Assembly (NCBI GenBank): GCA_041650915.1
Contig: JBAZKE010000006.1
Location: 8,961-72,960, forward strand
Length of the DNA: 64,000 nt
Direction: 5' to 3'
Origin: Patescibacteria group bacterium
Lineage (GTDB): Bacteria; Patescibacteriota; Patescibacteriia; UBA10025; JAHIVO01
Both the position numbers and the translations under genes were made by a program. Under the pieces are notes generated by a model. The model saw only the letters and a list, made by a program, of their open reading frames with translations, was not told where the DNA came from and searched no databases. Positions 5,562 to 64,000 of this stretch are shown here, in pieces. Each line of letters begins with the position of its first letter. Positions within the stretch are counted from its first letter, which is position 1.

Positions 5562-5634
5562 CTTCTCCTAACTCTCCTTCCTAATTTCTTCTGATTACCA
5601 GGAAGCCCGATTTTGCGATCGGGCTTCCGCATAA

Positions 5635-8600
5635 TTGGGCGAAATTCTTCAGGTTATTATGAAAAATTTAGACTGGACTCCTGATACCGCGGAACAAGCC
5701 GGCGAGGCCATCGGCATCGCTTGGGATACAGCGGAATTTACACCGGAAGATTTGCTTCAGGGTATGAATGTCGAGCTTGAGCACTGTTCAGACCCAGATA
5801 CCGAAGTAATTACTTGTAATTCTGAAGATACTGCTCGAATCGCTTGGGCACACCTTAAAGAATCGTCCGCATATTATCGCAATCTAGCTAAAATGGAACA
5901 AAGCTTTAAAGAAGCCTCCGCCAGAACGGCCGCCGAGCTTGAACCCGAGGACTTGGCTAAAGCGCGCGGTCTAGAAAAAACTCGTCCTGTAGTTGACCCC
6001 TATGAAATTCGTGCGCGCGAAATTCTTAAAGAGCAAGGCAACGAGCAGCCGACAAAAAAAGAACTCGATGCAGCCTACGATTTAGCCTCACGTGAAGGGC
6101 GAAAGCCCGGCGCGGCACCGGCCCCAGAAGCCGCGTCCGAGCCAGTTAAAATCAAGCGCGGAAAAAAGGTCTATAAGGCGCCCAAGCAAAAAGCTGAAGA
6201 GCCCAAGCCCGACAAGCAAGAGTTCATCGCGGCTTTCCTGGCCGATTATGACCATAGGCGCAAGTCTTTTATCATTGATAGTCTGAATGCGCTACGCGCT
6301 GATAAATCTATTTCTAAAGAGCAGCGCGTTCAAGTAGGTAAAACTATCGCGGCCATGCAGCCCGAAGCTCTGGCGGCGTTTGCTTATTCTAAAGCACTTG
6401 CTGATTTTGAGACCAAAGCAAAAACTAAGGCACAAGAATCGGCTTTTCACACCAAAGTAAAACAATACCTCAAAGCGCAGGGTATCGAAGACTATACGCA
6501 AGAGCAATGGAGCGCGGCAGTTTCTGCGATCATCGCCCAAGAGCGCAAAGAAGCCAAAGAACTAGAGAACACCAATATAGAAAAAGGCACCAAGCATCTG
6601 CAAGAGAAGAAGGAAACTGTAGACCCAGAAGACGAACAAAATGATCAACAGGTTGCGGAGTTCACGCAGCCGCTAGTCACGTCTGCGGTCAGTCAAATCA
6701 AGTCTTTTGTCAAAAATCCAAAGGCGGAAGTCTGGACACAGTATCCTGGTGCAGATAAAACCCGGTGCTTCGTTTTAGATGTGTTGGTTCCTCGCGGTGA
6801 GCGCTACGCTGCACGCGTAGGTAATTATCTCAATATACCGGCTGATGTTGTGCTCGGTGCAATAGAATCATCCGGCGCAGCGTATAAAGAATACATTACA
6901 TACATCTCAGAGTTTAATACAGAACTCACCCAGGCTTTAACTGCAGCGTTTGAGGCTGAATTACCAAAGCTAGCACCGTACATAGATTTGGGTTTAGACA
7001 AAAAAGACACAGCGGATGCCGCCGACGATAAAAAAGCTAAACCGAAGATTAAATCCGATGTCCCCACACTTGACACCAAGCTCATAGGCTGGGAGCTGGA
7101 GATATTTGATACTGTAGCGTTTGGGGAATCTATTTCTGACGCACCCGAAGGTTTGCTTTTGGTTGCTACAATCGAAGAATCGTATATCGCCCATTGGTCC
7201 GCTGTGGACAAAGCGGCAATCAAAATTCTGCATACAGACATTCCTAAAACAGTTAAAAATCCAGGTAAGTGGCCTGATTGGGCAAAAACTGACAAATGGT
7301 TCGACGTCAGCACCGAGATGGCAGAACCCAGCGAAGCCGTGGTCGTGGCACAGCTTGCGAAGTACGCTGGCGGAAATGATTCCTACAGTCTAAGCGCTAG
7401 TTCGGCGCTCAAGCTCAAGCGTGATTCTGGTTCACCAGCGTACACTAAATATTTTGCTAAAAAGTTCGAAAATTTAAAGACTAAACCAGAAAAGACCGAT
7501 ACTCCGGTCATTGCGACAGAGATTTTCCGTGATTATTTAGAATTACCCGAATCAGATCCGCTACAGTCGCTAGCCGAAGCCATCGTTATGGAAAAAATGG
7601 GAGATATAGCGGAGCATCAGACAGCCAGAATACAAGATCAAGGATATACAGATTGGATGGTCCTGGTATACGATTCAGTCAAGCAGACTGTGATTCCTGA
7701 CGCGCCCAAAGGTCTATTGCTTTTAGGTATTATTTCCAAAAAAGATAAAGAACAGCACACTCAGGCGTTGGCACGACGCAAAGCCATTATCAATAGTGCG
7801 CAGGCTACAGGGGCACAGCAGCTTGAACTTTTTGGGCCCAATGCGGGGCGCGGTGAAGGCCAAGGTGTGGCTGAGTTTACCAAAAAGGCCGAGGCTGAAC
7901 TAGGACTTTCCGAGGATGAAGCCGATCTATGGCGCCAGTATTTCATTGTATCGTTGAAGCAAACTCAGCACACTCACGTGAAACCTATGCCGCGCAAACC
8001 AAAAAAATTCAAAACTGAAACAGGCAAGCAAGTGACTATGAAGCCCGACGAATCTGAATTCGCTGAAGATATTTCACAAATTGGTAAATCGGACGTCGAA
8101 ACCTACGACCAGCGTTACAGCAGCGTGAAGACGGCGGTGGTTAAGGACTGCAAAGAAAAAGACCTGGATGATCGCCCCAAGGCCGAGCAAAAAGTTTGCC
8201 TCTACAGCGAAGAGGGCAAGCTGCTCGGCCGGCATCCCACGGAAGAATCGGCGGAAAAGCAACGCCGCAAGGTCGAGATGGAAAAGCACTCGGCCTACTT
8301 CAAAGTCAATCCTCTGGCTTTCGTTTCGGCAGACGAAATTTCTGATTACTACGAAGAGCAACATCTCCGGATGGCCTATGGGTTCTATGACGCAGACCAA
8401 GCGCAAAGGGCCCAAGCCAAAGTAACGGCAATCTGGAAAATGCGCAAAGCTCGAGTTGGCGCAGAGTTGACCTATACCAAGCAAAACGGCAACGAAGTAG
8501 AATTCATCGGTACGGTGGACAGCGCGCGAACGTACCGAGGTACGGCTGGGCTGGATCCGGTAGCCATCACTTCCATCAATCCCTTTGAAGAATACGCCCA

Positions 8601-12856: not shown

Positions 12857-14059
12857 ATGAAAATTACACCGGAAATCATGGCGGAGTGCAAGCATTACCC
12901 AGATGGTACTATAGGTGTACGAAATCGTAGCGGCAGAATGATAAAGTATGAATGCTGCGCGTCCTGTGCTGGGTGCGGCGAACCATTTTTATCTGAACAT
13001 TTCTACAAAAACGGACAGCGCGTTTTTAACACGTATTGCTCTGTTTCTTGTAGAAGTAAAAATATGGTTCTTTCCGACGAAACACACCACAAAATGGTGG
13101 TGTCGCATCTCGGTAAACCTGTTTCACCAGAAACGCGTAGGAAGTTAAGCGCAGCGTCTCGTGGTAGACCAATGCCCCTGCACGTGTCGGCTGTATTGCA
13201 CTCACCAGAGGCCAAACTAAAAGCCAGAGCAGGGCGAGACGCCCACGTGGCACTGCATGGTGGAAATTTAAAACCAGCACAGCATGCTGCTAAACACAAC
13301 CACTACCGACACTATATAAATAAAGCGGCAAACCGCGGTTTGATTTTTGAACTGACTAAAGATGAATTCTTAGACATAACATCTAAGCCTTGTCATTACT
13401 GCGGTGTAGCATCCAGCATCACAGTTAAAAATCATGCTTGCTGCACCACAGATGGTTTTTATGTCTGCAATGGCGTAGATCGCGTGGATTCAAGCAAAGG
13501 ATATACGCTGGATAACGTGGTTCCGTGCTGCACCCAGTGTAACATAGCAAAGTTAAATAAAAATATCGCTGAGTTTTTAATTTGGGTACTGAAAACGGAT
13601 TTGTTTTTACGTAATAAACCCACTAGTTTAACTTATTTCGGAGACATCATTGAGGCACAGCAGAGCGTTATGCGCGTTGTATTTGGTGAGCATAAGCGTA
13701 GGCGTAAGCACGGCAGTAAAGATTATATAGTCAGCACGCTGAGCATAATTGATTTTGCACGCCTAATAAGAACGCAATGCTTCTACTGCGGTGGAGGGTT
13801 ATCTAACGCGCGTGCACGCACTTACGGGCGTAACAGAAAACGTCCGGCTGATGGTGTAGTGCTGGAATACAATGGTTTGGACAGAATAGACCCCGATGGT
13901 GGCTATACCCTGGAAAATGTGGTTCCGTGTTGTGCAACGTGCAATAGAGCTAAATTAGATTACTCACAGGACGAATTCTATACCTGGGTAACACGCGTAG
14001 CCAACCACATTAGAAATACGCCAGAACTGTTTGATTTGGTCTCGTCCCATCTTTGTTAG
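12857..14059 (+). CDS. HNH homing endonuclease (tandem HNH_3-type motifs)
   Basis: Two copies of NGxDRxDxxxGYTLxNVVPCCxxCNxAKL. N-terminal Cys-rich segment. Markedly AT-rich compared with neighbours. Confidence 0.75.
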   Translation: MKITPEIMAECKHYPDGTIGVRNRSGRMIKYECCASCAGCGEPFLSEHFYKNGQRVFNTYCSVSCRSKNMVLSDETHHKMVVSHLGKPVSPETRRKLSAASRGRPMPLHVSAVLHSPEAKLKARAGRDAHVALHGGNLKPAQHAAKHNHYRHYINKAANRGLIFELTKDEFLDITSKPCHYCGVASSITVKNHACCTTDGFYVCNGVDRVDSSKGYTLDNVVPCCTQCNIAKLNKNIAEFLIWVLKTDLFLRNKPTSLTYFGDIIEAQQSVMRVVFGEHKRRRKHGSKDYIVSTLSIIDFARLIRTQCFYCGGGLSNARARTYGRNRKRPADGVVLEYNGLDRIDPDGGYTLENVVPCCATCNRAKLDYSQDEFYTWVTRVANHIRNTPELFDLVSSHLC

Positions 14060-27482: not shown

Positions 27483-28241
27483 ATGTTGCTTTCGGGCGTG
27501 TACAAGATTCAAAATACAGTTAATGGCAAACAGTACATAGGTAGTTCTGTGAATATACGAGAACGCTGGCAAGACCACGAAAGAAACCTGCGTGCCGGTA
27601 CGCACGCTAACGCCAGGCTGCAACACGCCTGGAATAAATATGGGGCAGACGCGTTTATATTTTCTATCATAGAGCTAGTCTCTCCAACCAAAGATGCTTT
27701 AATTGCACGCGAGCAAGCGTGGATAGATTTGCACAATACTGCTCATCGGGATGTTGGGTACAATATAAGTCCGACGGCAGGATCTTCTCTGGGCACCAAA
27801 TTTTCTGCGGAAACTTGTGCGCGCATGAGTAAAGCACAAAAGGGCAAAGTGCTCACGGAAGAGCACAAAAGAAAGATAGGCGCAGCGGCAAAAGGCAGAA
27901 AAGCGTCGGACGAAACTAAAATAAAGATTGGAAACGGTAGTCGAGGCAGAAAGCACACAGAGGAATGTAAAGCTAGAATCGGAGCTGCGTCCGCTGCTTG
28001 GACACGTGGGCCTGTATCGGACGAGACGCGCGCCAAACAAAGTGTAACGCGAAGAGCGAAACGATTGGGACATGGCGCCTCTAATGGCAGGGCAAAATTA
28101 ACAGAAGAACAAGTGATTGAGATCCGCAGACTTTACGCCACACGCGAATACACCAACGTTCAAATAGCGCAGCTTTTTGGCGTGTGCAAATCCACCATAG
28201 GCAGGATAGTACAGGGTAAACACTGGATTTTTGTAGCTTAA
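27483..28241 (+). CDS. GIY-YIG homing endonuclease with NUMOD3-type repeats
   Basis: GVYKIQNTVNGKQYIGSS...R...H. Repeated HKxKIG/ETKxKIG modules. AT-rich island. Confidence 0.85.
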   Translation: MLLSGVYKIQNTVNGKQYIGSSVNIRERWQDHERNLRAGTHANARLQHAWNKYGADAFIFSIIELVSPTKDALIAREQAWIDLHNTAHRDVGYNISPTAGSSLGTKFSAETCARMSKAQKGKVLTEEHKRKIGAAAKGRKASDETKIKIGNGSRGRKHTEECKARIGAASAAWTRGPVSDETRAKQSVTRRAKRLGHGASNGRAKLTEEQVIEIRRLYATREYTNVQIAQLFGVCKSTIGRIVQGKHWIFVA

Positions 28242-28391
28242 AATTGTGCGGTATTAATTAATGCACGCTGGCAAGATAAAGTATCGAATTCTTTCATTCA
28301 TAATTTAAACTTTTATGCCTTCCTTTTGTGCTCCATGCCAGTAAATTTTGTAAAACAATAGGGAAGAATTTACCTGCTTCCACGGTAGACT

Positions 28392-43041: not shown

Positions 43042-43269
43042 ATGTCACAAAAACTTCGTAAGTGCATTCAACTCGGTAAAGTGGTGGTTCGTAATCGGAC
43101 TTCCGGCGAAGTCATTGTGTATTACCCACTGCCAGACGGCTCGCCAGCGACTGCCACCATTTCCCCCGGTGGAAGTATGGAACTAGCGCCCAAGTTCACC
43201 ACGCCGGCCATGTTGATGAAATCCAACCTGGAAGAGCTGGCCCGCAAAGGCCACGTGACTTTCATATAA
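43042..43269 (+). CDS. Hypothetical small protein (75 aa)
   Basis: RBS AAAGGA. Confidence 0.45.
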   Translation: MSQKLRKCIQLGKVVVRNRTSGEVIVYYPLPDGSPATATISPGGSMELAPKFTTPAMLMKSNLEELARKGHVTFI

Positions 43270-44150
43270 TGCAATGTCACATCCATGACAATGTTCCCGC
43301 CAGTGCAGATTTATTAGTCATTCACCACATTAAACCGCAAGCATTCGGCGGGCAAGACATACCTGAAAACCGTGTGATGCTGTGCGCATCATGTCACGAC
43401 GTTCTGCATAAAGCAGAACATAAATTATCCAAAGGAAAGACCGGAGAAGCACTAGATATTATCGATCGCTTTTTACCGAATCAGACTGCCAGGCAACAGC
43501 GTCTCCGTGCACTGATGAATTCTGTGGCCTCGGCGCGTAAGGCTTGGAAGACCAAGTCGAATGTTGTTCCGGAGGCTCAGGGTAAAGTTGACGACACTGT
43601 AATCGTACAGCTAAATCTTCCGATTTGGTTACACCATAGGCTAAAAACAACCGCGCAAGATCAACAGGTTGGGTTGTACAAGCTCTGCCTCCGGGTGCTG
43701 GAGCAATATGTCGTCAAGCAAGACATGCCAACCTTGGACCCGGCTATACCCGCGGCTCCGGCACCAGAAGTAAAGTTCATCGCACCGAAGCCAAATAAAA
43801 TAATCCAGATCTGGAATGTTTTGGATAAAGCCGACGCCATGGAACTCGAAACACGAATGTTGTCCGCGGGATCGAAAGAGCGCTATTGCGAGATCATGCA
43901 AAAGGCACTCAAGCTATCCCCGTTGCCCCGCCACTTAGAAGATAAAGATTTTAGTCTGGACGACGCGTTCGGGCTGCTGACATGTGTGTTCGACAAACTT
44001 AAAAAAGCGCAAATGCGCGGAGTCGACGAACTATACTGCGGTGTACTTTTGCTGGCGCTCAAGGGTTACCCCGTTACTTTACAAATCCAGGCAGAAGCTC
44101 AGCACTATAAAACAACAAAATGGTTATTGCATTTATTTCCTGCTGCGTAA
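43269..44150 (+). CDS. HNH nuclease domain protein (293 aa)
   Basis: N-terminal HHIKPQAFGGQDIPENRVMLCASCHDVLH (HNH motif). Confidence 0.6.
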   Translation: MQCHIHDNVPASADLLVIHHIKPQAFGGQDIPENRVMLCASCHDVLHKAEHKLSKGKTGEALDIIDRFLPNQTARQQRLRALMNSVASARKAWKTKSNVVPEAQGKVDDTVIVQLNLPIWLHHRLKTTAQDQQVGLYKLCLRVLEQYVVKQDMPTLDPAIPAAPAPEVKFIAPKPNKIIQIWNVLDKADAMELETRMLSAGSKERYCEIMQKALKLSPLPRHLEDKDFSLDDAFGLLTCVFDKLKKAQMRGVDELYCGVLLLALKGYPVTLQIQAEAQHYKTTKWLLHLFPAA

Positions 44151-51335: not shown

Positions 51336-52079
51336 GTGCGTTTATTGTGCGGAGGCACGAAGCAGCCGCAGTACTGCTGTAAAACGGCAGCACGCCGCCA
51401 GTGCGCGGTGCGGAGAACACCGGTGCTTACCAGCGATAAAACTGTAGATGGACGTTTGATTACTAGTTTGTCCCCTTGTAGTGAACGCAGAGTTTCTGTC
51501 AAATGCGACACGTGTGGCGTGATCAACACCACTAGTTATGCCAACTACAACCGGGCGCAAAAGACGACGCACAATGGATCCGGGCGAACAACGTGTAGAA
51601 AATGTGCAGTAACAAAATCGGCGCTAGCACGCAAAGGCAAACCACGCGCACCTAAACCAAAACTGCCGCCAGAACAATTAGGGGCAAACCACAAAAGTTG
51701 GCGTGGCGGCAGGTACATCGACGCAAACAATTATGTAATGGTACACCAGCCAGACAGAAGTAAAGCCAGAACAACCGGCTGGGCGCACTATCGTAAAGAA
51801 CATATCGTCGTTATGGAACAGCACATAGGCCGACGCCTGTTGCCCAATGAAACTGTACACCATATAGACGGAAACAAACAAAATAATGTGCTGTCCAATC
51901 TGTATTTAGTACACTCGCACGCAGAACACCGCAACGCGCACACGTCCCTGCAGCAAATAGGTTATGCGCTCATTAGAACCGGTATGCTTACGTTTGACCT
52001 ACAAAATGGGCAGTACATCGTGGGCGAAGCGCTTCAGCACCTGTTAGACCTTGCTAAAACAACTGAAGGGAACACCTGA
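51336..52079 (+). CDS. HNH homing endonuclease (247 aa)
   Basis: VHHIDGNKQNNVLSNLYLVHSHAEHRNAH (HNH motif). N-terminal CxxC...CxxC. AT-rich. Start codon uncertain. Confidence 0.65.
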   Translation: MRLLCGGTKQPQYCCKTAARRQCAVRRTPVLTSDKTVDGRLITSLSPCSERRVSVKCDTCGVINTTSYANYNRAQKTTHNGSGRTTCRKCAVTKSALARKGKPRAPKPKLPPEQLGANHKSWRGGRYIDANNYVMVHQPDRSKARTTGWAHYRKEHIVVMEQHIGRRLLPNETVHHIDGNKQNNVLSNLYLVHSHAEHRNAHTSLQQIGYALIRTGMLTFDLQNGQYIVGEALQHLLDLAKTTEGNT

Positions 52080-53652: not shown

Positions 53653-54288
53653 CTATAGATCCATCACGACGGGCTTCCCGACGACGTTGCCGAACCGATC
53701 CATCTGCGTGACGTTCAGCGCTTTGGTCCTGGCATAGTGCTGCTTCCCATTGCCGTGACTGAAAACATGGAGTCGCGGAGCGCGCTGCCGCACGATTTCC
53801 GCCAGGCCGCCGAATTCCGGCGGGCAGTGAGTAATCAAAATATCGAGGCCCTCGGGAATGTGGCACCAGCGATGGATCATGTAGTCGTCATGATCGCAAA
53901 ATGCACCCGCCAGGCTAAACTCTCGACTGAATGACCACGGAGACCACGGCGTACCGAAAATTTTGAAGCCTTCAACTTCCACGGTTTCGTCGACCAAAAC
54001 CTTAGCGTTGTAAAGGCGCGAAATTGCCTCGGTCTCGTTGGCATCGCACCATTCGTCTCGGTCACCGAATACGACGAATTTGTACTTGTGCGGTAGGCGC
54101 CCGAGCAACGCGTTGAAACGGTCGACGTCGTAGCGTGTACCGAACGTGGAGCTGAAGTCCCCGGTGCAAATCAGTACATCACCATCGGGAACCGACAGCA
54201 GGTAGTCTTCGTGGTGGGTGCATCCAATAAAAACGAAGCGCATGGGGACCTCCTGACTACAGTGTAGCAGAAGTGGACAACGCGTCAA
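53653..54288 (-). CDS. Calcineurin-like metallophosphoesterase (211 aa)
   Basis: FIGCTHH, LICTGDF and GNG/HxH motifs. Strong RBS AGGAGGT on the - strand. Confidence 0.7.
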   Translation of the reverse strand: MTRCPLLLHCSQEVPMRFVFIGCTHHEDYLLSVPDGDVLICTGDFSSTFGTRYDVDRFNALLGRLPHKYKFVVFGDRDEWCDANETEAISRLYNAKVLVDETVEVEGFKIFGTPWSPWSFSREFSLAGAFCDHDDYMIHRWCHIPEGLDILITHCPPEFGGLAEIVRQRAPRLHVFSHGNGKQHYARTKALNVTQMDRFGNVVGKPVVMDL

Positions 54289-54325
54289 GATGCAACTTCA
54301 CCTTAGTTTATAGACAGGAGACAGC

Positions 54326-55225
54326 ATGACTACACCAAATAAAATCCGAGTTCGCGGTGACGTGTACGAACTCGTGAAAAACGTAGCGCCGCTGGCGCAA
54401 ATGGACCTCGCCGACGAGATGTCCCAAGATATGCGGTTGGCCCAAAATGAGTTCGTGACGACGGTAGAGAACGTCATCGATGCCGTGGATGAAATCGATC
54501 CGCGCGGCCTTGCATCTCCCATCGCCGGAATGGCCGCGCCAATCGGCAAGATATTCACCAAAGCGCAAGGAATCCTCAAACTATTTCAACACGACAAAAT
54601 CAGCGTGGAACTCTACAAATTGGAGTACGGTCGTTGGTACTTGGTACACGAGCTGGTGCGTGTGGCCTATCACTTTGCGCGCCAAGATTACTACAAGCGA
54701 GACAACAAACTAGATATTGACACCGTGGTCAGCGCACTTGACTACGACAAAACACTAAAAGAACTGCGGCAAGACCACGAGCGCTATTACGCGGCAGCCG
54801 CATCTAAAATACTGCTGCGCTTCATTAAGGCCGGCAGTGAGGATGACACCCCTGTCGTACAGGATTCGAAAACAAGGCGTGAGCTAGACCTCAGTGCCGT
54901 GACGATACAGCGAATTAAGGACACCATTAAGCACGTGCTGCAGGCTGCACTTGACCTCGGAACCGCCACGGCCGAAACCCTGGACAAATACGACAGCGCT
55001 GCTCGGCATCTCGCGGCAGCTACAAATCTGGCTAAAGAAATCGCCAAGGCGCCGCAGATGTTGATGAAACCTGAACCCCTGACTCCGCCAGAGCACAAAG
55101 AGCGCATCGATACAGACGCTACAATAAGTAAATCCGTTGAGGACGAGCCCACCGCCATTGATCCGCGCGTAAAGCACGGCACCTACCTTCACTACGCCGG
55201 AAAAACCTACCGTCCACTCACGTAG
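54326..55225 (+). CDS. Hypothetical protein (299 aa) with hairpin tag at both termini (N: NKIRVRGDVYEL; C: YLHYAGKTYRPLT)
   Basis: RBS CAGGAGA. Tag-like peptide at residues 6-16 and in the last 13 residues. Confidence 0.6.
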   Translation: MTTPNKIRVRGDVYELVKNVAPLAQMDLADEMSQDMRLAQNEFVTTVENVIDAVDEIDPRGLASPIAGMAAPIGKIFTKAQGILKLFQHDKISVELYKLEYGRWYLVHELVRVAYHFARQDYYKRDNKLDIDTVVSALDYDKTLKELRQDHERYYAAAASKILLRFIKAGSEDDTPVVQDSKTRRELDLSAVTIQRIKDTIKHVLQAALDLGTATAETLDKYDSAARHLAAATNLAKEIAKAPQMLMKPEPLTPPEHKERIDTDATISKSVEDEPTAIDPRVKHGTYLHYAGKTYRPLT

Positions 55226-55270
55226 TTCCCTCCCTTTTCGCATAAAACCCGGTTCCGACGCGTTTTCTGC

Positions 55271-55299
55271 TTGACGGCCGCGTTGCCGTGCAGTACAGT
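55271..55299 (+). promoter_or_regulatory. Sigma70-like promoter P5 (TTTTCTGCTTGACG-17-TACAGT) driving a leaderless ATG
   Basis: The ATG at 55306 lies 6 nt after the -10. Confidence 0.5.
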
Positions 55300-55305
55300 C
55301 GTGCC

Positions 55306-55539
55306 ATGCGTCGACTACTGCACCACCACGCCGAGCGCCGCCGTGTCCACGAGCACCGGCTGCGCCGCCTGCATCAGCACTACTACACAAGGCCATTTTT
55401 CTTAGATGGCGGTTGGTCGCTACACGATGACCGAATCCCAGTAATTCGGCTAACGCCAGCGGCGTGGGAAAAGCTGCTCGAGATGCTAGAACGTCCACCT
55501 GCACCCACGGAAGTGTTACGCAGACTTATGAAAGGCTAA
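55306..55539 (+). CDS. Hypothetical small basic His/Arg-rich protein (77 aa)
   Basis: Leaderless ATG. The track ORF starts at GTG 55288, inside the promoter. Confidence 0.4.
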   Translation: MRRLLHHHAERRRVHEHRLRRLHQHYYTRPFFLDGGWSLHDDRIPVIRLTPAAWEKLLEMLERPPAPTEVLRRLMKG

Positions 55540-55542
55540 TAA

Positions 55543-56138
55543 TGCATAAAGTCAAGAATTCCACAGCGTGGAACGCAATCAAACAGCTTCCCATCGGCAC
55601 GAAAGTCATGGTTTCGGCGGAGTTGGTACAAGCAGACGACGTGGCTGGACGAGTTGACTATAAAACGGACCCACCGGCAGAATACCCACATGTGGTGTCG
55701 ATGCCCAGAATTTGGCGCGCCAGAGCTTGCAAACCGTTCGTTGCGTGGATTTCGGGCGCCCGATGGTGCTGCGAGGGTGCACTGAAAACCACGTATTTCT
55801 ACGACTATTCGGCGCCTACGCACGGAAGTAGGTTTGTAACGAATAACAAGATTCCGGCGTTGCTCGTGCGCAAAGCACAGTTCAGCAAGGAAATTATTGT
55901 CCCCGTCGACGCCGTTGAGGAAATCGTGCTTAGCGTTACGGCGCCCAGACTTATGCTCGCCGAAGCAGCACCATTGATGCAAACGACGCCCTGCTCCGAC
56001 GCCGCTCGCGAATATCTGCGAGAACGAAGCAAAGCGGCTGCGCGCGGGCAAGGAGGCAAATTTTTGCCATCCGCGCCAACACCAACAGCGGAAACTCCTG
56101 CTCCAGCCACCACATGGTCGTGGGCGCGACCAATTTGA
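55543..56138 (+). CDS. Hypothetical protein (198 aa)
   Basis: ATG with AAAGG RBS. The track ORF 55464..56138 is trimmed to this start. Confidence 0.45.
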
Positions 56139-56148
56139 TTGGTGAAAT

Positions 56149-56403
56149 ATGTCTAAAGAAGCGCTTGCAAAACTACTTAGAAAACGGCTGATCAAAGCCG
56201 GTCTGGTTCCTACGGAACTCGTCAATCGTGTGTCCGATGACGCTATTATTGACAGCTACATAACGTGCAGCGGGTGCCACACAAAAATTGTGACTTCTGA
56301 GGAGCTCGTGGCAGCGGTTGCACAGGCGCGCTCGACAGAACATTTTTTCGAGTTGTGTGACTTCGATGCACGGATGAAAAACCATTCCGCCGGACATAAC
56401 TGA
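56149..56403 (+). CDS. Hypothetical small protein (84 aa)
   Basis: RBS GGTGAAAT. Confidence 0.45.
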   Translation: MSKEALAKLLRKRLIKAGLVPTELVNRVSDDAIIDSYITCSGCHTKIVTSEELVAAVAQARSTEHFFELCDFDARMKNHSAGHN

Positions 56404-56413
56404 TAGGAAAGCA

Positions 56414-57979
56414 ATGCAAAATCAAGAAAATGATCTCCTCGCTGCGCTTCAAACGCTAGATCTCGTTGAGCAGACTCAGGGGCGCAACGCCAAAAGCGAT
56501 TTACTCAAGCAACAAGTCGACAATCTTTATATCCAGGATATCATGCGGTACGCCCTAGGCTCCTATCGCTATTTCGTTACTCCGCCTGATGACGTTGTAT
56601 CGCATCCTAGTTTGTCTCTGGAGAAATCCTGGGTCGAATTCAGAACACTGCTCAAGCGCCTGCGCACCCGCGAGGTAACGGGGAACGCGGCGCTGGCGGA
56701 GGTCAGCGCGCTGCTTTCACAGTGTCCTGCCTCAGCCTTGAAGTGGTACACGAGAATTCTGAACCATGACCTCCGTATCGGCATCGGGCACGATGTCGCT
56801 AAAGCTCTTTGGGGAGATGAGTTCCTTCTGGGCAAAGAAGCCAAGACCGAGGATTGGAAGTTCACGGGATGCGCCCTGGCCAAGCCCTGGGCCGACGTCT
56901 GGTCCAAGGGTGCCCCGTACCCCTTGGGCGTAGAGCGCAAGCTCGATGGAGAGCGTGCTCTGGTGTTCATCTGGCCCGCGACGGGCAAGATGGTCGTGAC
57001 GACACGAAACGCCAAGCGGCGTGAAGCCATCGAGGGCGTTGAGGCGTTTGGGCAGCAACTCATTGATTTGGCCCACGCGATGAACCCCGACGATCCCGAT
57101 ATGCCGATGTTCTTCGACGGGGAGTTTCTGGCCAAGACGTGGAATGATACGTCGAGCCTAATTCGTAAAACCAAGAACTTCGACGCCGAGGCATTCATTC
57201 GCGATATCCGGATGCTCATTTTCGATTGGGCCCCAACAGCGGACTACTGCGCTGGGCGTTTCGATATGCCCTGGCTGGAGCGTAAGATTCGGCTTCTATC
57301 CGCCGTGGGCTGCACCAGGGCGACTCCCGAGCCTGTAGAGTTCTCTGCCAACCTCACAGTTCTGGGACATGTCATCGCACACAACGACGAGGAGCTTCAG
57401 GCCGAGTACAATGCGTGTCTTGACGCCGGGTTCGAGGGCATTGTTGCAAAGGTCATGACGGCGCCAGAGTTGTTCAAGCGTACGGCAAATAACGTCAAGC
57501 TCAAACCCACGGACACGCAGACCGTAACGATCACGGGCGCAGTGGCGGGGCAAGGCAAGCACGCTGCCGCATCGAGCGCGTTTATTTCTGCGGTATCTGG
57601 GGTGCTGAATCGGTACGGCAAAGCCCAGGGCACGGTACCGTACATGCGCTGGACCGTTGACGATGTCGATGCCGCCATGGCCGCGGTCAGGAAGGTCGTG
57701 GCCGACGATACGGAACGCCGGCTTGAAGCCGAGGGCAATGTCATTACGCTGCGGACGGGAGCCCGGCTGGGGTATTTCACAGCTGTAACCCCGAATGGCG
57801 ACGAAATCCATGTTGGCGGCGGGTATACACATAAAACCGGACGCGATCAGCGCATGGATTTCTGGCTCCGGCGGGACGAACTCTTGGGCAAGAAAATCGA
57901 TATCAAAGTCCAGCAGGACAAGGAGCAGGTTGGTGTAGGGCGTTTCAACCGGTTTAGCCGAATCAGGGACGATTTGTAA
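56414..57979 (+). CDS. ATP-dependent DNA ligase
   Basis: Motif I KLDGERAL, motif III FFDGEFL, motif IV EGIVAK, motif V LKPTD. RBS TAGGAAAG. Confidence 0.85.
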   Translation: MQNQENDLLAALQTLDLVEQTQGRNAKSDLLKQQVDNLYIQDIMRYALGSYRYFVTPPDDVVSHPSLSLEKSWVEFRTLLKRLRTREVTGNAALAEVSALLSQCPASALKWYTRILNHDLRIGIGHDVAKALWGDEFLLGKEAKTEDWKFTGCALAKPWADVWSKGAPYPLGVERKLDGERALVFIWPATGKMVVTTRNAKRREAIEGVEAFGQQLIDLAHAMNPDDPDMPMFFDGEFLAKTWNDTSSLIRKTKNFDAEAFIRDIRMLIFDWAPTADYCAGRFDMPWLERKIRLLSAVGCTRATPEPVEFSANLTVLGHVIAHNDEELQAEYNACLDAGFEGIVAKVMTAPELFKRTANNVKLKPTDTQTVTITGAVAGQGKHAAASSAFISAVSGVLNRYGKAQGTVPYMRWTVDDVDAAMAAVRKVVADDTERRLEAEGNVITLRTGARLGYFTAVTPNGDEIHVGGGYTHKTGRDQRMDFWLRRDELLGKKIDIKVQQDKEQVGVGRFNRFSRIRDDL

Positions 57980-58222
57980 AATTAGTTGAAGCAGTACTTT
58001 GCAGAGCTAGAGGTGGCACATGTGGCGCTAGAACAAAAATTAAAGACGTGGCTTGTGAGAGCAAACTACGAGGATTGAAACGATTGCGCGCATTGCGACG
58101 ACAATAATTTCAGATGGACAGACCAGCGTACTTGGACAGAGACACTGAAATTTGCAGACCAACTGGCCGATTTCGCCGAGAAATACAAACCGACTCTGTA
58201 ACAGTAGCAGAAAGGCAAAACA

Positions 58223-58498
58223 ATGTCAAAATACGATCGACGCCAGAAAACTGAATCTATTTCTCTGTTTGACATTCTTTCCGCGGTTGACGCCAGCGTT
58301 GACACGGCGAAAACGGTCGCGGAGCTTAACTCGGATCTTAATTCAGATAAATATAAATTCACATCAGCAGAGCGTGCGGTACTAGCTACACTGCAGCACA
58401 AATGCGTTCTGATCGCAGAGCAGCACGGTGCATTTTTGGATATGGTTCTGCGGTCTATGGACGACGTAGAAGCCGAGGTCGAGAAAAGCGAGGACTAA
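58223..58498 (+). CDS. Hypothetical small protein (91 aa)
   Basis: RBS AAAGGCAAAAC. Confidence 0.45.
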   Translation: MSKYDRRQKTESISLFDILSAVDASVDTAKTVAELNSDLNSDKYKFTSAERAVLATLQHKCVLIAEQHGAFLDMVLRSMDDVEAEVEKSED

Positions 58499-58893
58499 TG
58501 CGGCGCAAAAAGGAAAAGCAGGAACTCCCGAAACGTACTGCCCGGGGTAATGAACGCCGCGAGTTGGAGGGCTATGTTGGCGTCGACGAATACTTTGATG
58601 ACGACCCGCGTTCTATCGACGAGTACTGCGCCAGGATCCACTTAGCCTGCGAAGACGCACAGGCCTGCTGGCTCGCTCGGCATCCAGGCTGTGAAATCGA
58701 GCCAGGTACATTTTGGCTTAGACTCATGGAACAAGGCGTCTATGACCAAACCCGCCTGTACGGCGTTTTCTATTACTGGGAGGCAGAAGAAGACGCCGAC
58801 GAGTACGCAGAGACCCTGGCAGCCGCCCAGGCGACCAAAGCCGCACAAGAGCGCGAGCTGTACTTGCAGCTAAAAGCAAAGTTTGAACCATGA
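58498..58893 (+). CDS. Hypothetical protein (131 aa)
   Basis: ATG with GAGGA RBS overlapping the upstream stop. The track ORF 58402..58893 is trimmed to this start. Confidence 0.45.
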   Translation: MRRKKEKQELPKRTARGNERRELEGYVGVDEYFDDDPRSIDEYCARIHLACEDAQACWLARHPGCEIEPGTFWLRLMEQGVYDQTRLYGVFYYWEAEEDADEYAETLAAAQATKAAQERELYLQLKAKFEP

Positions 58894-59148
58894 CCAAAGT
58901 TCAATTTGAGTCAACCACCCCTCCTACATGGAGAGACGCGAAAAGGTCTCTGGTTGACTAGGGAACATCGAAAGGTGTAGCAGTTGGTCGAGAGAAATAC
59001 ATACACACCCGTGGACGCTCCTCAAATCTACGGCTCTGTGGATCTGTCGTTAAAAAGCTCAAGGGGTAGAGCTGGTGCGCAGATCTTAAAAACCTCTTCC
59101 AACAATCCCGATGAGGCTCTCACTTCCCTTTCGAGGGAAGGGCAGGAC
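58894..59148 (+). ncRNA. Candidate IscB-associated omega RNA scaffold and left-end structured region
   Basis: About 250-nt non-coding stretch immediately 5' of the IscB PLMP start. Dense nested hairpins (58909-58959 AGTCAACCA...TGGTTGACT with an inner GAGAC/GTCTC stem; GCTC...GAGC about 59080; CTTCCC-TTTCGA-GGGAAG 59120-59137). The reading frame is formally open through it. Confidence 0.3.
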
Positions 59149-60906
59149 TTGAGAGTACCTGCCGTTTATGTTCTTAATCAACGCGGCGAGCCATTAATGC
59201 CCACAACGCCAAGGAAAGCACGAATGCTTCTCCGGGAAGGAAAGGCCAAGGTAAAGACTAGAACTCCGTTTGTAATTCAATTGCTTGTTCCAACCGGAGA
59301 AACCAAACGGCCCATCGTTTTGGGAGTAGACGCTGGATACCTCCACGTTGGCCTGTCGGCCGTAACGGAAAATAAAGAAGTATACGCCGCGGAAATCACG
59401 CTTAGGTCTGATATTGTAGCCTTAATTTCGACTCGTAAAATGTATCGACAAACACGAAGAAGTAGAAAAACCTGGTACAGACAGCCGAGATGGTTGAATC
59501 GAGTAAAAAGCAAACCCAAAGGCTGGCTAGCTCCGTCAATTCAGCACAAGCTCAATAGCCATGTAAAACTGGTCGAGCGCGTTAAACGAATTCTTCCCAT
59601 TACCTCAGTAATAGTGGAAATAGCTGCTTTTGACATTCAGAAAATCAAAAATCCAGATATACAGGGAGTAGAGTACCAAGAAGGTGTGCAAAAAGGTTTT
59701 ACAAACGTGCGAGAATATGTGCTGTACAGAGATGGACATAAATGCCAAGCGTGCAAAGGAAAATCCAAAGACAAAATTTTGAAAGTAGTGTTGAACGCCC
59801 ACCACATAGAGTCTAGAAAAACAGGCGGAAATCGACCTGATAATCTCGTTACACTCTGTGCTGAGTGTCATAAGCTTTACCATAACGGTACCGTAAACAT
59901 TAAAACTAAACCCAGCAAAAGTTTCAAAGCCGAAGCATTCATGACGATGGTGTGGCGACGATTGGTTGAACTATTAGGTGCCGCAATCCGATATGGCTAC
60001 GAAACCAAACAAGCTAGAGCAGACGCTGGACTTAACAAAAGTCATGTTAATGACGCTTTTGTCGTCGCGGGCGGATGCTACCAGAACAGAACAGTTCCAT
60101 TTTTAGTAAAACAAGTTAGGAAACAGAACCGAAAACTTTACAATGGACCACACTCCGGTCGGCGCAGCACCGCTGCTCGATTTGTTCGTGGGTTCCAACG
60201 ATACGATAAAGTCCTGTACAAAGGAGTGGAATGTTTTGTGTTTGGAAGAAGAACCAACGGTTATTTCGACGTCCGAGATCTATACGGTGCTAGAATACAT
60301 GACGGCGCAAAAGCCAAGGACTGTGTTTTGCTGGAAACAGCAAGCACTTTATTAACCTGTACCCTAAGAGGTGGCACTCCCCTGCCTAAAGGCAGAGGTC
60401 TCCATGCCGAAGCCCAAATGAAAATCAGAACTGGTTTTGTCAGCAATTCGAGTAGTTCTAGCTTTGTCGTGCAAATCCGGCAGAGTCCGTGGGAAAAATC
60501 CGAGCCCAAATTGTTGCTTTCGCCGGAGCAACTCGCATGGCTAGAGTCTCAAGGATTTCGGTACTGTGCGCACACGTATCCCTCGCGAGTTGAGGAAACT
60601 GGGATTCTGGAAATGTACCCTGGCGCCGAAACGCCTGAAGCAGCAGAAAATATGTGGCTGTCGGTGATTTGTAACCAAGACGAAGTCATCGACGGTTTGG
60701 TCCGGCAGGGCATTCCATTTTGTGCGTCATGCCACTACGGACACGAGACTGTGGTTTGGCGCGCTGGCGATAAGCGCGTTTATGCATTGCCAAATTTAGG
60801 GCACGAATACGAAACATACCAAGAGGAGAAACTTTTCAAAGCTAAAGTCAAAGTAGCATCACAAACCGTAGCAAGCATCAAGAAAAACGGGTGTAATCTC
60901 GTTTAG
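59149..60906 (+). CDS. iscB: IscB-like RNA-guided nuclease (PLMP, RuvC-I, Arg-rich bridge, RuvC-II, HNH, RuvC-III, TID), fused in-frame to a C-terminal MKIRTGFVSNSSSSSF-family module
   Basis: VYVLNQRGEPLMPTTPRKARMLLREGKAKVKTRTPFVIQLL. LGVDAGYLHVGLS (catalytic D at about 59329). RRSRKTWYRQPRW. VIVEIAAFDIQ. HNH: CQAC...HHIESRK...N...LCAECHKLYH. SHVNDAFVVAGG. TID: FQRYDKVLYKGVECFVFGRRTNGYFDVRDLYG. TTG start at 59149 with GAGGGAAGGG RBS. The track ORF is open from 58984. Confidence 0.8.
   Translation: MRVPAVYVLNQRGEPLMPTTPRKARMLLREGKAKVKTRTPFVIQLLVPTGETKRPIVLGVDAGYLHVGLSAVTENKEVYAAEITLRSDIVALISTRKMYRQTRRSRKTWYRQPRWLNRVKSKPKGWLAPSIQHKLNSHVKLVERVKRILPITSVIVEIAAFDIQKIKNPDIQGVEYQEGVQKGFTNVREYVLYRDGHKCQACKGKSKDKILKVVLNAHHIESRKTGGNRPDNLVTLCAECHKLYHNGTVNIKTKPSKSFKAEAFMTMVWRRLVELLGAAIRYGYETKQARADAGLNKSHVNDAFVVAGGCYQNRTVPFLVKQVRKQNRKLYNGPHSGRRSTAARFVRGFQRYDKVLYKGVECFVFGRRTNGYFDVRDLYGARIHDGAKAKDCVLLETASTLLTCTLRGGTPLPKGRGLHAEAQMKIRTGFVSNSSSSSFVVQIRQSPWEKSEPKLLLSPEQLAWLESQGFRYCAHTYPSRVEETGILEMYPGAETPEAAENMWLSVICNQDEVIDGLVRQGIPFCASCHYGHETVVWRAGDKRVYALPNLGHEYETYQEEKLFKAKVKVASQTVASIKKNGCNLV
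60418..60906 (+). other. C-terminal extension of the IscB ORF, equal to paralog A of the MKIRTGFVSNSSSSSF family (163 aa), with internal ATG
   Basis: Begins MKIRTGFVSNSSSSSF, like the two genes downstream. In the IscB frame with no intervening stop. Could instead be a separate or coupled gene. Confidence 0.5.
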
Positions 60907-60914
60907 GAGGAAAC

Positions 60915-61283
60915 ATGAAGATCAGAACCGGGTTCGTAAGTAATTCCAGCAGCTCCAGCTTTTTGATCTGGGGCATCACAGTAGACACGTCGGAGTTTCA
61001 GAAAGAAATTCCCGTAAGAGATGAAGACGGGGAAGACTGCGAGGAAGAGAGCCCGTACGATGTCGCGGAGCGGCTTGAGTCCGAATACGGTGACATCGTG
61101 CGGTTTGCTTATGAAAACGACATCCTATATCTCGGTCGGTGCCCTTCAACTTGCGGCCTAGACGAGACCATGCGGAAGTTCCAGCAGCGCGTGGAAACCG
61201 AGGTGAAAGCCATGGCTGAGAAAGAAGGCGTAGCTCTGGGAGACGTGGAATTCGGGTGGCTCGAGGAAGCCTGGCACGACTGA
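60915..61283 (+). CDS. Small acidic protein, MKIRTGFVSNSSSSSF family paralog B (122 aa)
   Basis: Strong RBS TAGGAGGAAAC. The N-terminal 20 aa are conserved with A and C. Homologous to C over its full length (CxxxC.DETMxxFxxRVET...FGW...AW). Confidence 0.65.
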   Translation: MKIRTGFVSNSSSSSFLIWGITVDTSEFQKEIPVRDEDGEDCEEESPYDVAERLESEYGDIVRFAYENDILYLGRCPSTCGLDETMRKFQQRVETEVKAMAEKEGVALGDVEFGWLEEAWHD

Positions 61284-61293
61284 GGAGGACAAA

Positions 61294-61611
61294 ATGAAAA
61301 TCAGAACCGGTTTTGTAAGTAACTCGAGTAGTTCAAGCTTTTTGATTTGGGGCACCTTTGTCGAGGTAGACAAATTCGGCGAGGAATTCGATCGCGATGA
61401 AGTCGAAGGCGACATCGTGCACTCCGCCGGGCCCGACGACGACTATTACGTTTACGTCGGACGTGTGCCTAAAGAGTGTCGTGATGACGAAACCATGGGG
61501 CAATTCAAAGCCCGCGTCGAGACCGACGCCAGAGCGTTCCTGGCTGAGCAAAAAGTCGACGCGACAAATCTGAAATTTGGATGGCATTCGGCCGCGTGGT
61601 ACGACGGATAG
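61294..61611 (+). CDS. Small acidic protein, MKIRTGFVSNSSSSSF family paralog C (105 aa)
   Basis: Strong RBS TGAGGAGGACAAA. Paralog of B. Confidence 0.65.
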   Translation: MKIRTGFVSNSSSSSFLIWGTFVEVDKFGEEFDRDEVEGDIVHSAGPDDDYYVYVGRVPKECRDDETMGQFKARVETDARAFLAEQKVDATNLKFGWHSAAWYDG

Positions 61612-61710
61612 AACGACTTTGGTCGTTTTAAAAAATCAGATACCTGCCGGGCGACTGTAGTCAAATCTGCAAAACGTGAAACCATTATCATTTAGTCACT
61701 GGAGGATGAT

Positions 61711-61899
61711 GTGCAATTAATTGCTCTACGTTTTGAGATCAAAACCGACGGCATTGGGAAATGCGCGGAGGAGTGTCCGCAGTTGGCACGGGAGCACCCA
61801 GGATCAACTTATCCAGATCGCTGCAGGGCATTCAAGGCCGACATTAGAGGTCTGGAACGTTTGCTCCAGTGCATGAAACACGAAATTGAGGTGCATTAA
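61711..61899 (+). CDS. Hypothetical small Cys-containing protein (62 aa)
   Basis: GTG start with a GGAGGA RBS. Weak. Confidence 0.35.
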   Translation: MQLIALRFEIKTDGIGKCAEECPQLAREHPGSTYPDRCRAFKADIRGLERLLQCMKHEIEVH

Positions 61900-61900
61900 A

Positions 61901-62260
61901 ATGGTGACAAAGTACGTAGAAGAAGATCTGGGTGAGTTTGTTTCTCAATCCAGGCTTGATCTCGATGCAGTAATTCAGCATCTGATGGAACTGCGCAAAA
62001 ACATACTAGAAGCTGGGTTTTCAGACGTTTGGCTGGAATATGACCCAGACGATATATGTGGTGAATGTGGTAGAAGCAACTTGCACGTTAGAGCTTCGCG
62101 ACCCGAAACGCCTGCCGAGCGTGAAAAACGAGAGCAGCGCGAAGCTGCTGCACTAGCCCGCGATGCGCGCGAGAAAAAAGCCAAAGCAAAGAAGCTAATA
62201 GCTAGAGTTCGTAGTCTTGGTTTTTCGAATGAAGAAGTACTCGCCCAGTTCAAGAAGTAG
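61901..62260 (+). CDS. Hypothetical protein (119 aa) with basic K/R/E-rich C-terminus
   Basis: ATG with GAGGTG RBS. The track ORF 61886..62260 is trimmed to this start. Confidence 0.45.
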   Translation: MVTKYVEEDLGEFVSQSRLDLDAVIQHLMELRKNILEAGFSDVWLEYDPDDICGECGRSNLHVRASRPETPAEREKREQREAAALARDAREKKAKAKKLIARVRSLGFSNEEVLAQFKK

Positions 62261-63958
62261 TTAGAATCCCATCTTCTTTCCACCTCGTCCTAATTCCTCA
62301 ACGAGATATTCCCGTGTAACCTCGACGCCCAGGACCTCGGCCTTCCGGATGGCCCGGATGAAGTTCTGCGGCAGGCAGGGCGTCGAAACATTTCTAGCGC
62401 CACCGGAAAACCGATTCAAAAATCCAGCAATCTGCTGAGGTTTAAGAAAATCAAATTCCAGAGTCACGGCGAAGCAACTCAGCAAACCGCTGGGGAGTCT
62501 TTCGCTGGGACCCGAGGTACACAACACCAAGCCTGGATGACGTGAAATCAAAGTTGCCAAATTATCCGACATGATAGTGTTGTTGGCGTCAGTATCTTCT
62601 GTCTGGCAATCGAATAGCGCATCAATATCCGTGATGACTCCAACAGCGCCTTCCCGTCGAAGTTTTTCAAAGAATTTCCTCATGACCATGGCGGTATCAT
62701 GGGGCGAATCCGAAATAAAGTCAGTAGCGCTTTTCTGGGTCACAACACCTGCAGATTCCCCGAGCCAGCGCGCAGCACTTCTTCGGCCCGAGCCAAATGG
62801 TCCGGAACACAAAACAGCACAAGGGTGCTGGGCCAATTTGGGAGCCAAGCTGGCCAAGTCCAAGGAACAGTTTACAAGGGCAGGATCGAACTCCAAGCTG
62901 GGGTTAGTTCGAGGCAGAATTTCGTGTTCTGAAGAGTAAAGCTTCAAGTACTCTTCAGCCAGCAAATCCACGCAGTGGTCGGAAGTTTCGGGCGACACGG
63001 CGTGAATGACTTCCGTGACCTTGGCCATGCGGGCCAAGTCGGCGGCCGAGAGGTTGTCATTCAGCAGGTACTCAGGTACTTTCGCGATGCCAGAGAAATA
63101 ATGCTCGGCGATTTTCTTTCGAGTTTTTCGCGCTGGCACCGACATATTCAGGACCAGGTCAAACCTACGCAACACCGCCGAATCCATGTCCCGACAGGAA
63201 TTGGTAATCCAGAATGTTGGAACTGCATTGGTTTCCAGGAGGCGGTTCACAAAACCTTTGGCGCGTTGTTTAGCGGTAGTATCGGAATCCGGGGCGAATA
63301 CATCTTCGACTTCGTCAAACAATAGCAGCGCGGCAGAACCTCGACGTAGAATTTCCTGAGCCAGACGATACGCCGTGAGTCGATCGTCGCGGTCTTTGGC
63401 CGAGAGATCGGAGTTCTCTTCCACGACGCCAAAAAGAGGAACGCCCAGACTCTGAGCCAAAACTCTCGCGACCTCGCTTTTGCCTACACCTGGACGACCG
63501 TACAACAGCACATTGACGCCAGTTTTCTTTTTCGCGATGGCAGCATCGAGGTATTGACGGAACACCGTGAGTTTATCGTGATAATATTCAAAGTCATCCA
63601 GTGTCAGGCTGGTTGGGCTTGTGGGCAAAAAGAAAGTATTGAACACTTCATGGGGTTGCGCCGTGTAGATTTGTCGAGCCAAATCTTCCGAAAGTTCGAA
63701 AAACCTATCGTTGTTTTCAGGGCGTAGGCGCAAGATACCTGAACGAACCAGCGTGCTGCCGGGCTGTAGACACGTCTCGATGACTTTTTCGTCGTGGCCC
63801 AAAACAGCGTAAATATTACTATATAATCCTTTCAGAGTACCGATATCAGTTTTACAAACCAACGGTTCGAAAAAAGTGCAATCATACACCGCGGCAAGAA
63901 ATAGCAGAACATCGCGTTCGACTGGAGTCAAAGCCAGAACACGAGTAATCGCCGCCAC
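62261..63958 (-). CDS. Two-domain AAA+ ATPase (565 aa)
   Basis: Walker A LLYGRPGVGKS and Walker B LLLFDEVED in domain 1. A degenerate second module CSGPFGSGRRS / VITDID. GTG start. Confidence 0.7.
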   Translation of the reverse strand: MAAITRVLALTPVERDVLLFLAAVYDCTFFEPLVCKTDIGTLKGLYSNIYAVLGHDEKVIETCLQPGSTLVRSGILRLRPENNDRFFELSEDLARQIYTAQPHEVFNTFFLPTSPTSLTLDDFEYYHDKLTVFRQYLDAAIAKKKTGVNVLLYGRPGVGKSEVARVLAQSLGVPLFGVVEENSDLSAKDRDDRLTAYRLAQEILRRGSAALLLFDEVEDVFAPDSDTTAKQRAKGFVNRLLETNAVPTFWITNSCRDMDSAVLRRFDLVLNMSVPARKTRKKIAEHYFSGIAKVPEYLLNDNLSAADLARMAKVTEVIHAVSPETSDHCVDLLAEEYLKLYSSEHEILPRTNPSLEFDPALVNCSLDLASLAPKLAQHPCAVLCSGPFGSGRRSAARWLGESAGVVTQKSATDFISDSPHDTAMVMRKFFEKLRREGAVGVITDIDALFDCQTEDTDANNTIMSDNLATLISRHPGLVLCTSGPSERLPSGLLSCFAVTLEFDFLKPQQIAGFLNRFSGGARNVSTPCLPQNFIRAIRKAEVLGVEVTREYLVEELGRGGKKMGF

Positions 63959-64000
63959 GTTACTGGTAACGTGCTGGTCAAATGGAACTATTTCATGCTG

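Follow-up and report, generated by a model that had tools for sequence, protein, structure and literature searches.

The window analysed here, a stretch of 64,000 nucleotides, contains an iscB gene preceded by roughly 250 nt that are densely packed with possible stems. The question raised by this locus is whether these nucleotides form an RNA gene, a coding extension of IscB or a transposon end acting only as DNA and, if they form an RNA, where the element that carries it begins and ends. An earlier note on this DNA had described the region as highly structured and proposed it as a candidate omega RNA, setting its upstream limit at the previous gene's stop at 58893, a position confirmed here. 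Our conclusion is that 58894-59163 very probably encodes the omega (HEARO) RNA of a 1508-bp IscB element of the IS200/IS605 type, located at 58910-60417. The features considered are the following.

58894-58909, + strand: predicted guide segment, CCAAAGUUCAAUUUGA, in the flank between the upstream stop codon (58891-58893) and the scaffold
58910-59123, + strand: core of the omega RNA scaffold, with the extent of the Rfam HEARO (RF02033) match
59123-59140, + strand: 3' hairpin 1, CUUCCCU-UUCG-AGGGAAG, located beyond the Rfam model and with an SD-like purine run as its 3' arm
59141-59163, + strand: 3' hairpin 2, GGCAGGACU-UGAG-AGUaCCUGCC, with the TTG start (59149-59151) at its apex and overlapping iscB codons 1-5
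59149-60417, + strand: IscB-homologous coding part, 423 aa, with PLMP/RRXRR, split RuvC, HNH and C-terminal TID region
60373-60408, no strand assigned: imperfect subterminal hairpin, GGCA..CCCTGCC-TAAA-GGCAGAGG..TGCC, at the TAM-proximal end
60418-60422, + strand: ATGAA, predicted to be both TAM and insertion site; it doubles as the start codon of the next gene
60418-60906, + strand: invaded gene, first of three tandem paralogs (MKIRTGFVSNSSSSSF..., phrog_7397), in frame with iscB and with no stop between them

Identity and fold of the RNA

The Rfam scan of the whole window produced a single match, HEARO (RF02033), at 58910-59123 on the + strand. The match scores 100.1 bits, above the gathering score of 83 (E = 2e-19), covers model positions 1-211 (i.e., the full model) and was reproduced in a repeat scan. 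This is the covariance-model search that the earlier note had asked for, and together with the covariation described below it bears out the proposed omega RNA. In present naming, HEARO RNAs are the omega RNAs of IscB (Meers et al. 2023, bioRxiv 10.1101/2023.03.14.532601; review PMC13565253). The score of the window RNA, 100 bits, is at the low end, given the relatives tested reach 105-163 bits.

The comparison set consisted of 80 related IscB loci from viral contigs and the contig of the closest homolog. HEARO is present in all 20 of the related loci scanned, at an equal distance upstream of the PLMP motif, and the layout of the window, with the RNA (scaffold 58910-59163) directly upstream of and co-oriented with iscB (start 59149), is kept in each of these 20 relatives.

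For the stretch 58894-59160 (267 nt) the MFE is -89.3 kcal/mol, compared with -76.2 +/- 5.2 for shuffled sequences (z = -2.5, with 1 of 200 shuffles as good), which agrees with the strong structure claimed earlier, and the MFE structure reproduces the Rfam consensus. Applied to an alignment of 19 of these RNAs, RNAalifold recovered the fold, with compensatory change in 31 of 44 pairs. When the pseudoknot (GGGA 58961-58964 with UCCC 59106-59109) is included, 35 of 48 pairs are compensatory (i.e., both sides changed), all 4 pseudoknot pairs covary, and 94.7% of the cells are paired over the 19 loci, compared with 74.6% in shuffled controls and at most 42.6% when the partners are slid.

Two of the stems drawn from the sequence beforehand lie within this fold. 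The segment 58909-58959 had been read as a long imperfect palindrome. A perfect 9-nt inverted repeat is indeed present (AGTCAACCA/TGGTTGACT, at 58909-58917 and 58951-58959), but rather than forming a single hairpin it closes a junction around two small hairpins, with scaffold positions 58910-58916 paired with 58951-58957. The GCTC-GAGC stem is real, corresponding to AGCUC-AAGGGGU-AGAGCU at about 59057-59074, which is helix 8 of the covariation count.

Hairpins at the 3' end and the start of IscB

According to Meers et al. 2023 (bioRxiv 10.1101/2023.03.14.532601), RF02033 does not include downstream structural elements. At this locus, the structured RNA extends past the start codon, with a conserved hairpin that reaches 59163, within the first iscB codons. 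Hairpin 1 corresponds to the CTTCCC-TTTCGA-GGGAAG stem previously noticed over the RBS, and is a perfect 7-nt inverted repeat, CTTCCCT/AGGGAAG, at 59123-59129 and 59134-59140. Its equivalents in relatives have other sequences, such as UUUCUCU/GGAGAAA in L001 (the contig of the closest homolog) and CUUAGC/GCUAAG in loci L013 and L018, in an unscored comparison, the alignment being out of register at this point. For hairpin 2, 90.6% of the cells are paired across 13 loci, against at most 50.4% with slid partners, and 6 of 9 pairs are compensatory; between the window and L001, GGCAGG/CCUGCC is exchanged for GGCAGA/UCUGCC. These two hairpins contain the SD-like run and the start codon, and probably limit IscB translation or couple it to RNA folding.

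The formal ORF at 58984-60906 (+) encodes 640 aa and begins with TTG, not with the ATG given earlier. Since no stop interrupts the frame along the RNA in the window and its closest relatives, gene models are extended into it: NCBI's MFA5135515.1 has 622 aa from a GTG start at 59038, and gene callers likewise extend the proteins of the relatives. The open frame upstream is found in the window's clade only.

Alternative readings of the upstream stretch

The open frame is the main argument for taking the stretch as protein-coding, with IscB translated from TTG 58984 or GTG 59038 and carrying an N-terminal extension of 37-55 aa. Ahead of TTG 59149 there are 55 codons without a stop, and ahead of the PLMP motif in the closest relatives, whose proteins are extended by the gene callers, there are 66-91; the 622-aa product is listed by NCBI; and L001 and L003, the two closest relatives, have TCG in place of the window's TTG start codon (10139-10141 in L001), with no obvious alternative start nearby. 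Against this, stop codons over 60 distinct omega regions are equally frequent in the three frames (4.8, 5.0 and 5.0), with no depletion in the IscB frame, and only 15% of the omega regions are open for at least 60 codons. Substitutions track the base pairs and alter the encoded residues, the apparent conservation of 'ERNTYTP...SNNPDEALT' is that of translated invariant RNA segments, and the active, solved OgeuIscB begins two or three residues ahead of the aligned AVYVLN motif. The frame-neutral stops, pair-following substitutions and OgeuIscB start led us to reject the coding extension, which we consider very unlikely, in line with the earlier opinion that a 55-aa addition would be atypical and the stretch is more likely RNA. 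Given the equal stops in all frames, the small share of open loci and the start position of OgeuIscB, the start of IscB is placed at TTG 59149, as had been suggested before; this codon is in frame, and residue 60 of the formal ORF is the counterpart of residues 3-4 of OgeuIscB in the alignment.

A further reading takes the first stem-loop (58909-58959) as an IS200/IS605 subterminal hairpin acting at the DNA level for TnpA only, and not as RNA. Ends of IS200/IS605 elements carry subterminal hairpins, this stem-loop is at the very end of the element, and the opposite strand also folds as single-stranded DNA (z = -2.1). However, the stem-loop is positions 1-53 of the HEARO model, and its covariation is compatible with G-U pairs and lies within a larger RNA fold that has a long-range pseudoknot. 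A purely DNA-level hairpin was rejected on account of these model positions and the RNA covariation, and we give it hardly any probability; a dual role of the first stem, as RNA and as a transposase hairpin, is possible.

The IscB protein

The protein encoded next to the omega RNA is identified as IscB. In the formal ORF, Pfam matches RRXRR at aa 61-234 (3e-62) and HNH at aa 254-301, in agreement with the PLMP domain, HNH-split RuvC and arginine-rich helix of an IscB nuclease. The search yielded 7999 homologs, the closest of which, P0002, has 80% aa identity and carries the NCBI name 'RNA-guided endonuclease IscB'. Residues D61, E157, H218, H219, N232, H241, H299 and D302 occupy invariant columns in an alignment of 11 sequences, and the RuvC and HNH catalytic residues of the window IscB are intact. 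The match to the solved IscB structures (PDB 7xht, 7utn and 8csz, OgeuIscB) is distant and in two separate stretches (E = 1e-41). A type II CRISPR-Cas9 or a CRISPR-associated IscB was also considered and rejected, given no repeat array was found in 54000-64000 and the protein matches IscB, not Cas9.

Comparing the window IscB with that of L001 over 404 codons yields a dN/dS of 0.11 at a dS of about 1.05. In the scaffold upstream of the start codon (239 nt), identity to L001 is 88.7%, with zero indels. Because both the low dN/dS and the indel-free scaffold are found, purifying selection has acted on the IscB protein and on the omega RNA alike. The pair adds to a well-known kind of system, and differs considerably in sequence from the pairs characterised so far.

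Element boundaries with the predicted guide and TAM

The closest homolog, P0002, lies on the 59-kb contig L001, which is otherwise unrelated to the window: nucleotide homology is restricted to window positions 58909-60401, and the flanks are unrelated. Upstream, the homology begins at A58909/G58910. Given the column at 58909 varies among the relatives, the alignment places the scaffold start at 58910 (i.e., model position 1) and assigns A58909 to the flank. No conservation is seen across the 19 loci in the 30 columns that precede the scaffold. As conservation begins sharply at 58910, the predicted guide position is 58894-58909, compatible with the earlier expectation of a guide at or just upstream of about 58894. 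The predicted guide has 16 nt (CCAAAGTTCAATTTGA), a length taken from OgeuIscB. The window contains no second guide site with fewer than 3 mismatches.

The downstream boundary was located with sister families from viral contigs that are 95-99% identical and have different flanks. Their homology runs from GTCAAC to ATGAA, diverging only after ATGA(A), and in related loci a subterminal hairpin is followed by ATGA some 22-24 nt on. HMMs built for both ends found ATG[AG] at the boundary in all 37 distinct related insertions, 25 of which have ATGAA. The element thus delimited is 58910-60417, 1508 bp long, with its downstream edge at 60417/60418.

The TAM of GstIscB is TTCAT (Meers et al. 2023, bioRxiv 10.1101/2023.03.14.532601), and that of OgeuIscB is quoted as NWRRNA in PMC12660989. 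The ATGAA of the window is the reverse complement of the GstIscB motif. The ATGAAA at the downstream boundary of the element fits the OgeuIscB motif too.

Hairpins are found toward both ends of the element, at 58910-58957 and 60373-60408. In nearly every related locus a hairpin is found where the second, TAM-proximal one lies, and these hairpins are longer and more regular than that of the window. The window hairpin folds, but no better than shuffled sequences do (z = -0.6 to -0.9), and its counterpart in L001 is weaker still. [quoted passage not shown] 2023, bioRxiv 10.1101/2023.03.14.532601), hence the description of the omega RNA side as a left end, made before this analysis, has to be reversed.

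Copies of the element occur in differing contexts, with 80% identity between the window and L001 and 95-99% within the sister families; no second identical copy of the window element was found. Its G+C content is 45%, compared with about 52% in the surroundings. No Y1 transposase (PF01797) is on record among the called genes in window 1429-64000. Only about 1.5% of iscB genes come with a tnpA (Meers et al. 2023, bioRxiv 10.1101/2023.03.14.532601). Given no Y1 transposase is recorded in this range, mobility of the element would need a transposase acting in trans, or homing alone.

Read-through into the invaded gene

Compact IscB proteins have about 400-500 aa and end after the TAM-interaction domain. 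In contrast, the window iscB has no stop of its own, and its ORF continues to 60906, which amounts to 585 aa from TTG 59149, 162 of which are C-terminal read-through. Among 30 related copies, the stop codon lies inside the element in 24, where it is mostly a TAA in the loop of the end hairpin, and overlaps the TAM in five; the window is the only copy that reads through. The cause is the tail of the window element, which is 2 nt shorter than that of L001 and so places the iscB frame into the next gene. The read-through sequence is identical in a second assembly. The missing stop and the read-through could be a sign of early decay.

Three tandem paralogs, of which the invaded gene is the first, lie at 60418-60906, 60915-61283 and 61294-61611; they share an identical 16-aa N-terminus (MKIRTGFVSNSSSSSF) and the assignment phrog_7397, whose function is unknown. 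All three open with ATGAA, therefore each is a potential TAM site. A strong SD (GGAGG) precedes paralogs 2 and 3, and none precedes paralog 1.

Genomic context

The window belongs to contig k141_863847 of ENA ERZ27247363 (78 kb), which NCBI places in a 'Patescibacteria group bacterium' MAG (MFA5135514.1 / MFA5135515.1). The genes of this contig lie almost without exception on one strand. Few could be assigned to a family; those that could include an ATP-dependent DNA ligase, an RNA ligase, ThyX, a lysozyme-like domain, GIY-YIG, HNH and an endonuclease VII-like protein. In our judgement, the gene content looks phage-like. Homing-endonuclease-like genes are found at 12857-14059 (endonuclease VII/HNH-like), 27483-28241 (GIY-YIG with NUMOD3), 43269-44150 (HNH) and 51336-52079 (HNH_3).

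L001 belongs to a different MAG, also labelled 'Patescibacteria group bacterium', and encodes tRNAs and a TnpB. Besides the IscB element, a stretch of 101 nt is shared by these otherwise unrelated contigs with 88% identity (window 28281-28381, L001 16648-16748). In the window it lies just downstream of the GIY-YIG/NUMOD3 gene; it has no convincing ORF, is unstructured on the + strand (z = +0.7), and an exact 22-mer taken from it is absent from IMG/VR. On a viral contig of the comparison set, L018, two full-length HEARO RNAs (2755-2969 and 5531-5750) lie about 2.8 kb apart, which indicates two neighbouring IscB elements on the same strand.

Proposed mechanism and activity of the copy

In the published view, IscB guides are made by transcription that enters from outside the element, with a corresponding orientation bias (Meers et al. 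2023, bioRxiv 10.1101/2023.03.14.532601). In the window, the upstream gene is co-oriented with the element, and no sigma-70-like promoter was found in 58000-60600, both of which fit this read-in model. By analogy, transcription would enter from the co-oriented upstream gene and yield an RNA whose 5' part, the 16-nt flank, would serve as guide, and whose scaffold of about 254 nt would bind IscB made from TTG 59149. The complex would then cut CCAAAGTTCAATTTGA when followed by the TAM ATGAA(A), i.e., the uninterrupted allele, as left by excision or carried by a sibling genome that lacks the element. The junction of this empty or excised allele is predicted as TTCAATTTGA joined to ATGAAAATC. Recombinational repair from a copy bearing the element would restore or spread it. 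The occupied locus would be spared because the guide match there is followed by GTCAAC, and not by the TAM.

The exact junction patterns of an empty site were not found in viral or metagenome contigs. One junction match in genome contigs, in a membrane-protein gene of an Allomuricauda MAG, was discarded as chance given its unrelated flanks. The upstream flanking protein has no relatives, except itself, in viral contigs, metagenome contigs or a search of 5.8 billion proteins; the downstream paralog has none in viral contigs, and megablast of the region against GenBank phages returned no match. Two Logan contigs from a separate assembly of this genome, SRR8542065_560198 and SRR8542065_840519, are 100% identical to the window and break inside the element, at about 59006 and 59940. 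These may share reads with the ENA assembly; the breaks suggest that the sample contains repeats or variants of conserved IscB/omega segments. As the breaks fall inside the element, these contigs contain no empty site.

A different account of this copy grants that the RNA gene is real and holds that the copy is a decaying relic, immobile or inactive, and retained by recent descent only. The lack of a TnpA in the contig, the fusion of the stopless iscB to the next gene (one of the 30 copies), the modest TAM-proximal hairpin, and the failure to find either an empty site or a second identical copy all speak for it. Nevertheless, the dN/dS of 0.11 over 404 codons was obtained against a copy at a dS of about 1, identity in the scaffold is 88.7% with no indel, and every catalytic residue is intact. 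Moreover, the Rfam score is above the gathering score with nearly all pairs standard, the GGCAGG/CCUGCC and GGCAGA/UCUGCC helices of the window and L001 differ by compensatory changes, and tnpA is absent from most iscB loci anyway (Meers et al. 2023, bioRxiv 10.1101/2023.03.14.532601). The relic account is unlikely in our view.

Insertion at translation starts

Many of the related elements lie exactly between an SD and a start codon. An SD-like motif is found just outside the guide-side end in 17 of the 37 insertions, compared with 5.6% of all ATGA[ATC] sites (p = 3e-12), and in 22 of the 37 the boundary ATG opens an ORF of at least 40 codons. The loci with this enrichment are among L003-L065 (IMG/VR); the window's own flank is without an SD.

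A tentative explanation, which we regard as doubtful, is that the IscB elements of the window's clade are specialised to dock at translation starts and persist in phage genomes dense with genes by homing, without a transposase of their own. In such a case, the TAM ATGAA may be a start codon plus two bases, and the guide may be the 5' UTR of the invaded gene. For the window copy, the nuclease may be translationally fused to the gene it invaded, which would tie the expression of both. The enrichment may reflect an adaptive strategy, or may reflect the survivorship of those insertions that are tolerated in compact genomes. No description of docking between SD and ATG was found in the literature searched, the scope of which does not extend to the original HEARO paper (Weinberg et al. 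2009).

Comparison with known systems

The window locus resembles OgeuIscB/HEARO (PDB 7xht, 7utn, 8csz) in the position and orientation of the RNA, its overlap with the iscB start, its helices and pseudoknot, and its variable 5' guide, as well as in the PLMP, split RuvC, HNH and C-terminal TAM-interaction region of the protein. It differs from OgeuIscB in the 162-aa C-terminal read-through and in the distant protein match, and the clade of the window is known from sequence alone.

In its transposon features, the element is like that of GstIscB (Geobacillus stearothermophilus): both are non-autonomous units of the IS605 type in which the omega RNA is bounded by one transposon end and the other end adjoins the TAM (TTCAT, or ATGAA when read on the iscB strand). 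In both, flanking DNA supplies the guide, and the upstream gene is co-oriented. GstIscB resides in a bacterial chromosome, whereas the window element is in a phage-like contig where no cognate TnpA was identified. Excision and cleavage of the donor joint were shown for GstIscB, and would apply to the window element only by analogy.

TnpB with its omega RNA or reRNA, as in ISDra2 and other IS200/IS605 elements, is likewise a transposon-encoded RNA-guided nuclease, with a guide taken from the flank and a TAM equal to the transposase target motif. In contrast, its RNA is encoded at the 3' end of the gene, is transcribed from within the element, has a 3' guide and an unrelated fold, and the protein has a single RuvC. 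The free-standing homing endonucleases of phages (GIY-YIG, HNH) are similar as selfish nucleases that sit between phage genes and cut the allele without them. These recognise their target by protein-DNA contacts, while the window IscB would use an RNA guide and a short motif.

Implications

For annotation, the result means that the approximately 250 nt upstream of the window iscB are an RNA gene. The public gene models are affected accordingly: those of 622 and 640 aa are over-extended at the N-terminus, that of 560 aa is mis-started, and all of them read through at the C-terminus into another gene. The locus provides an IscB/omega RNA pair with predicted guide, TAM and boundaries, placed beside protein-only homing endonucleases in a phage-like genome. 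If the enrichment of insertions between SD and ATG is unreported, it would bear on the persistence of such elements in compact genomes, and on which sequences selection favours as matches for their guides.
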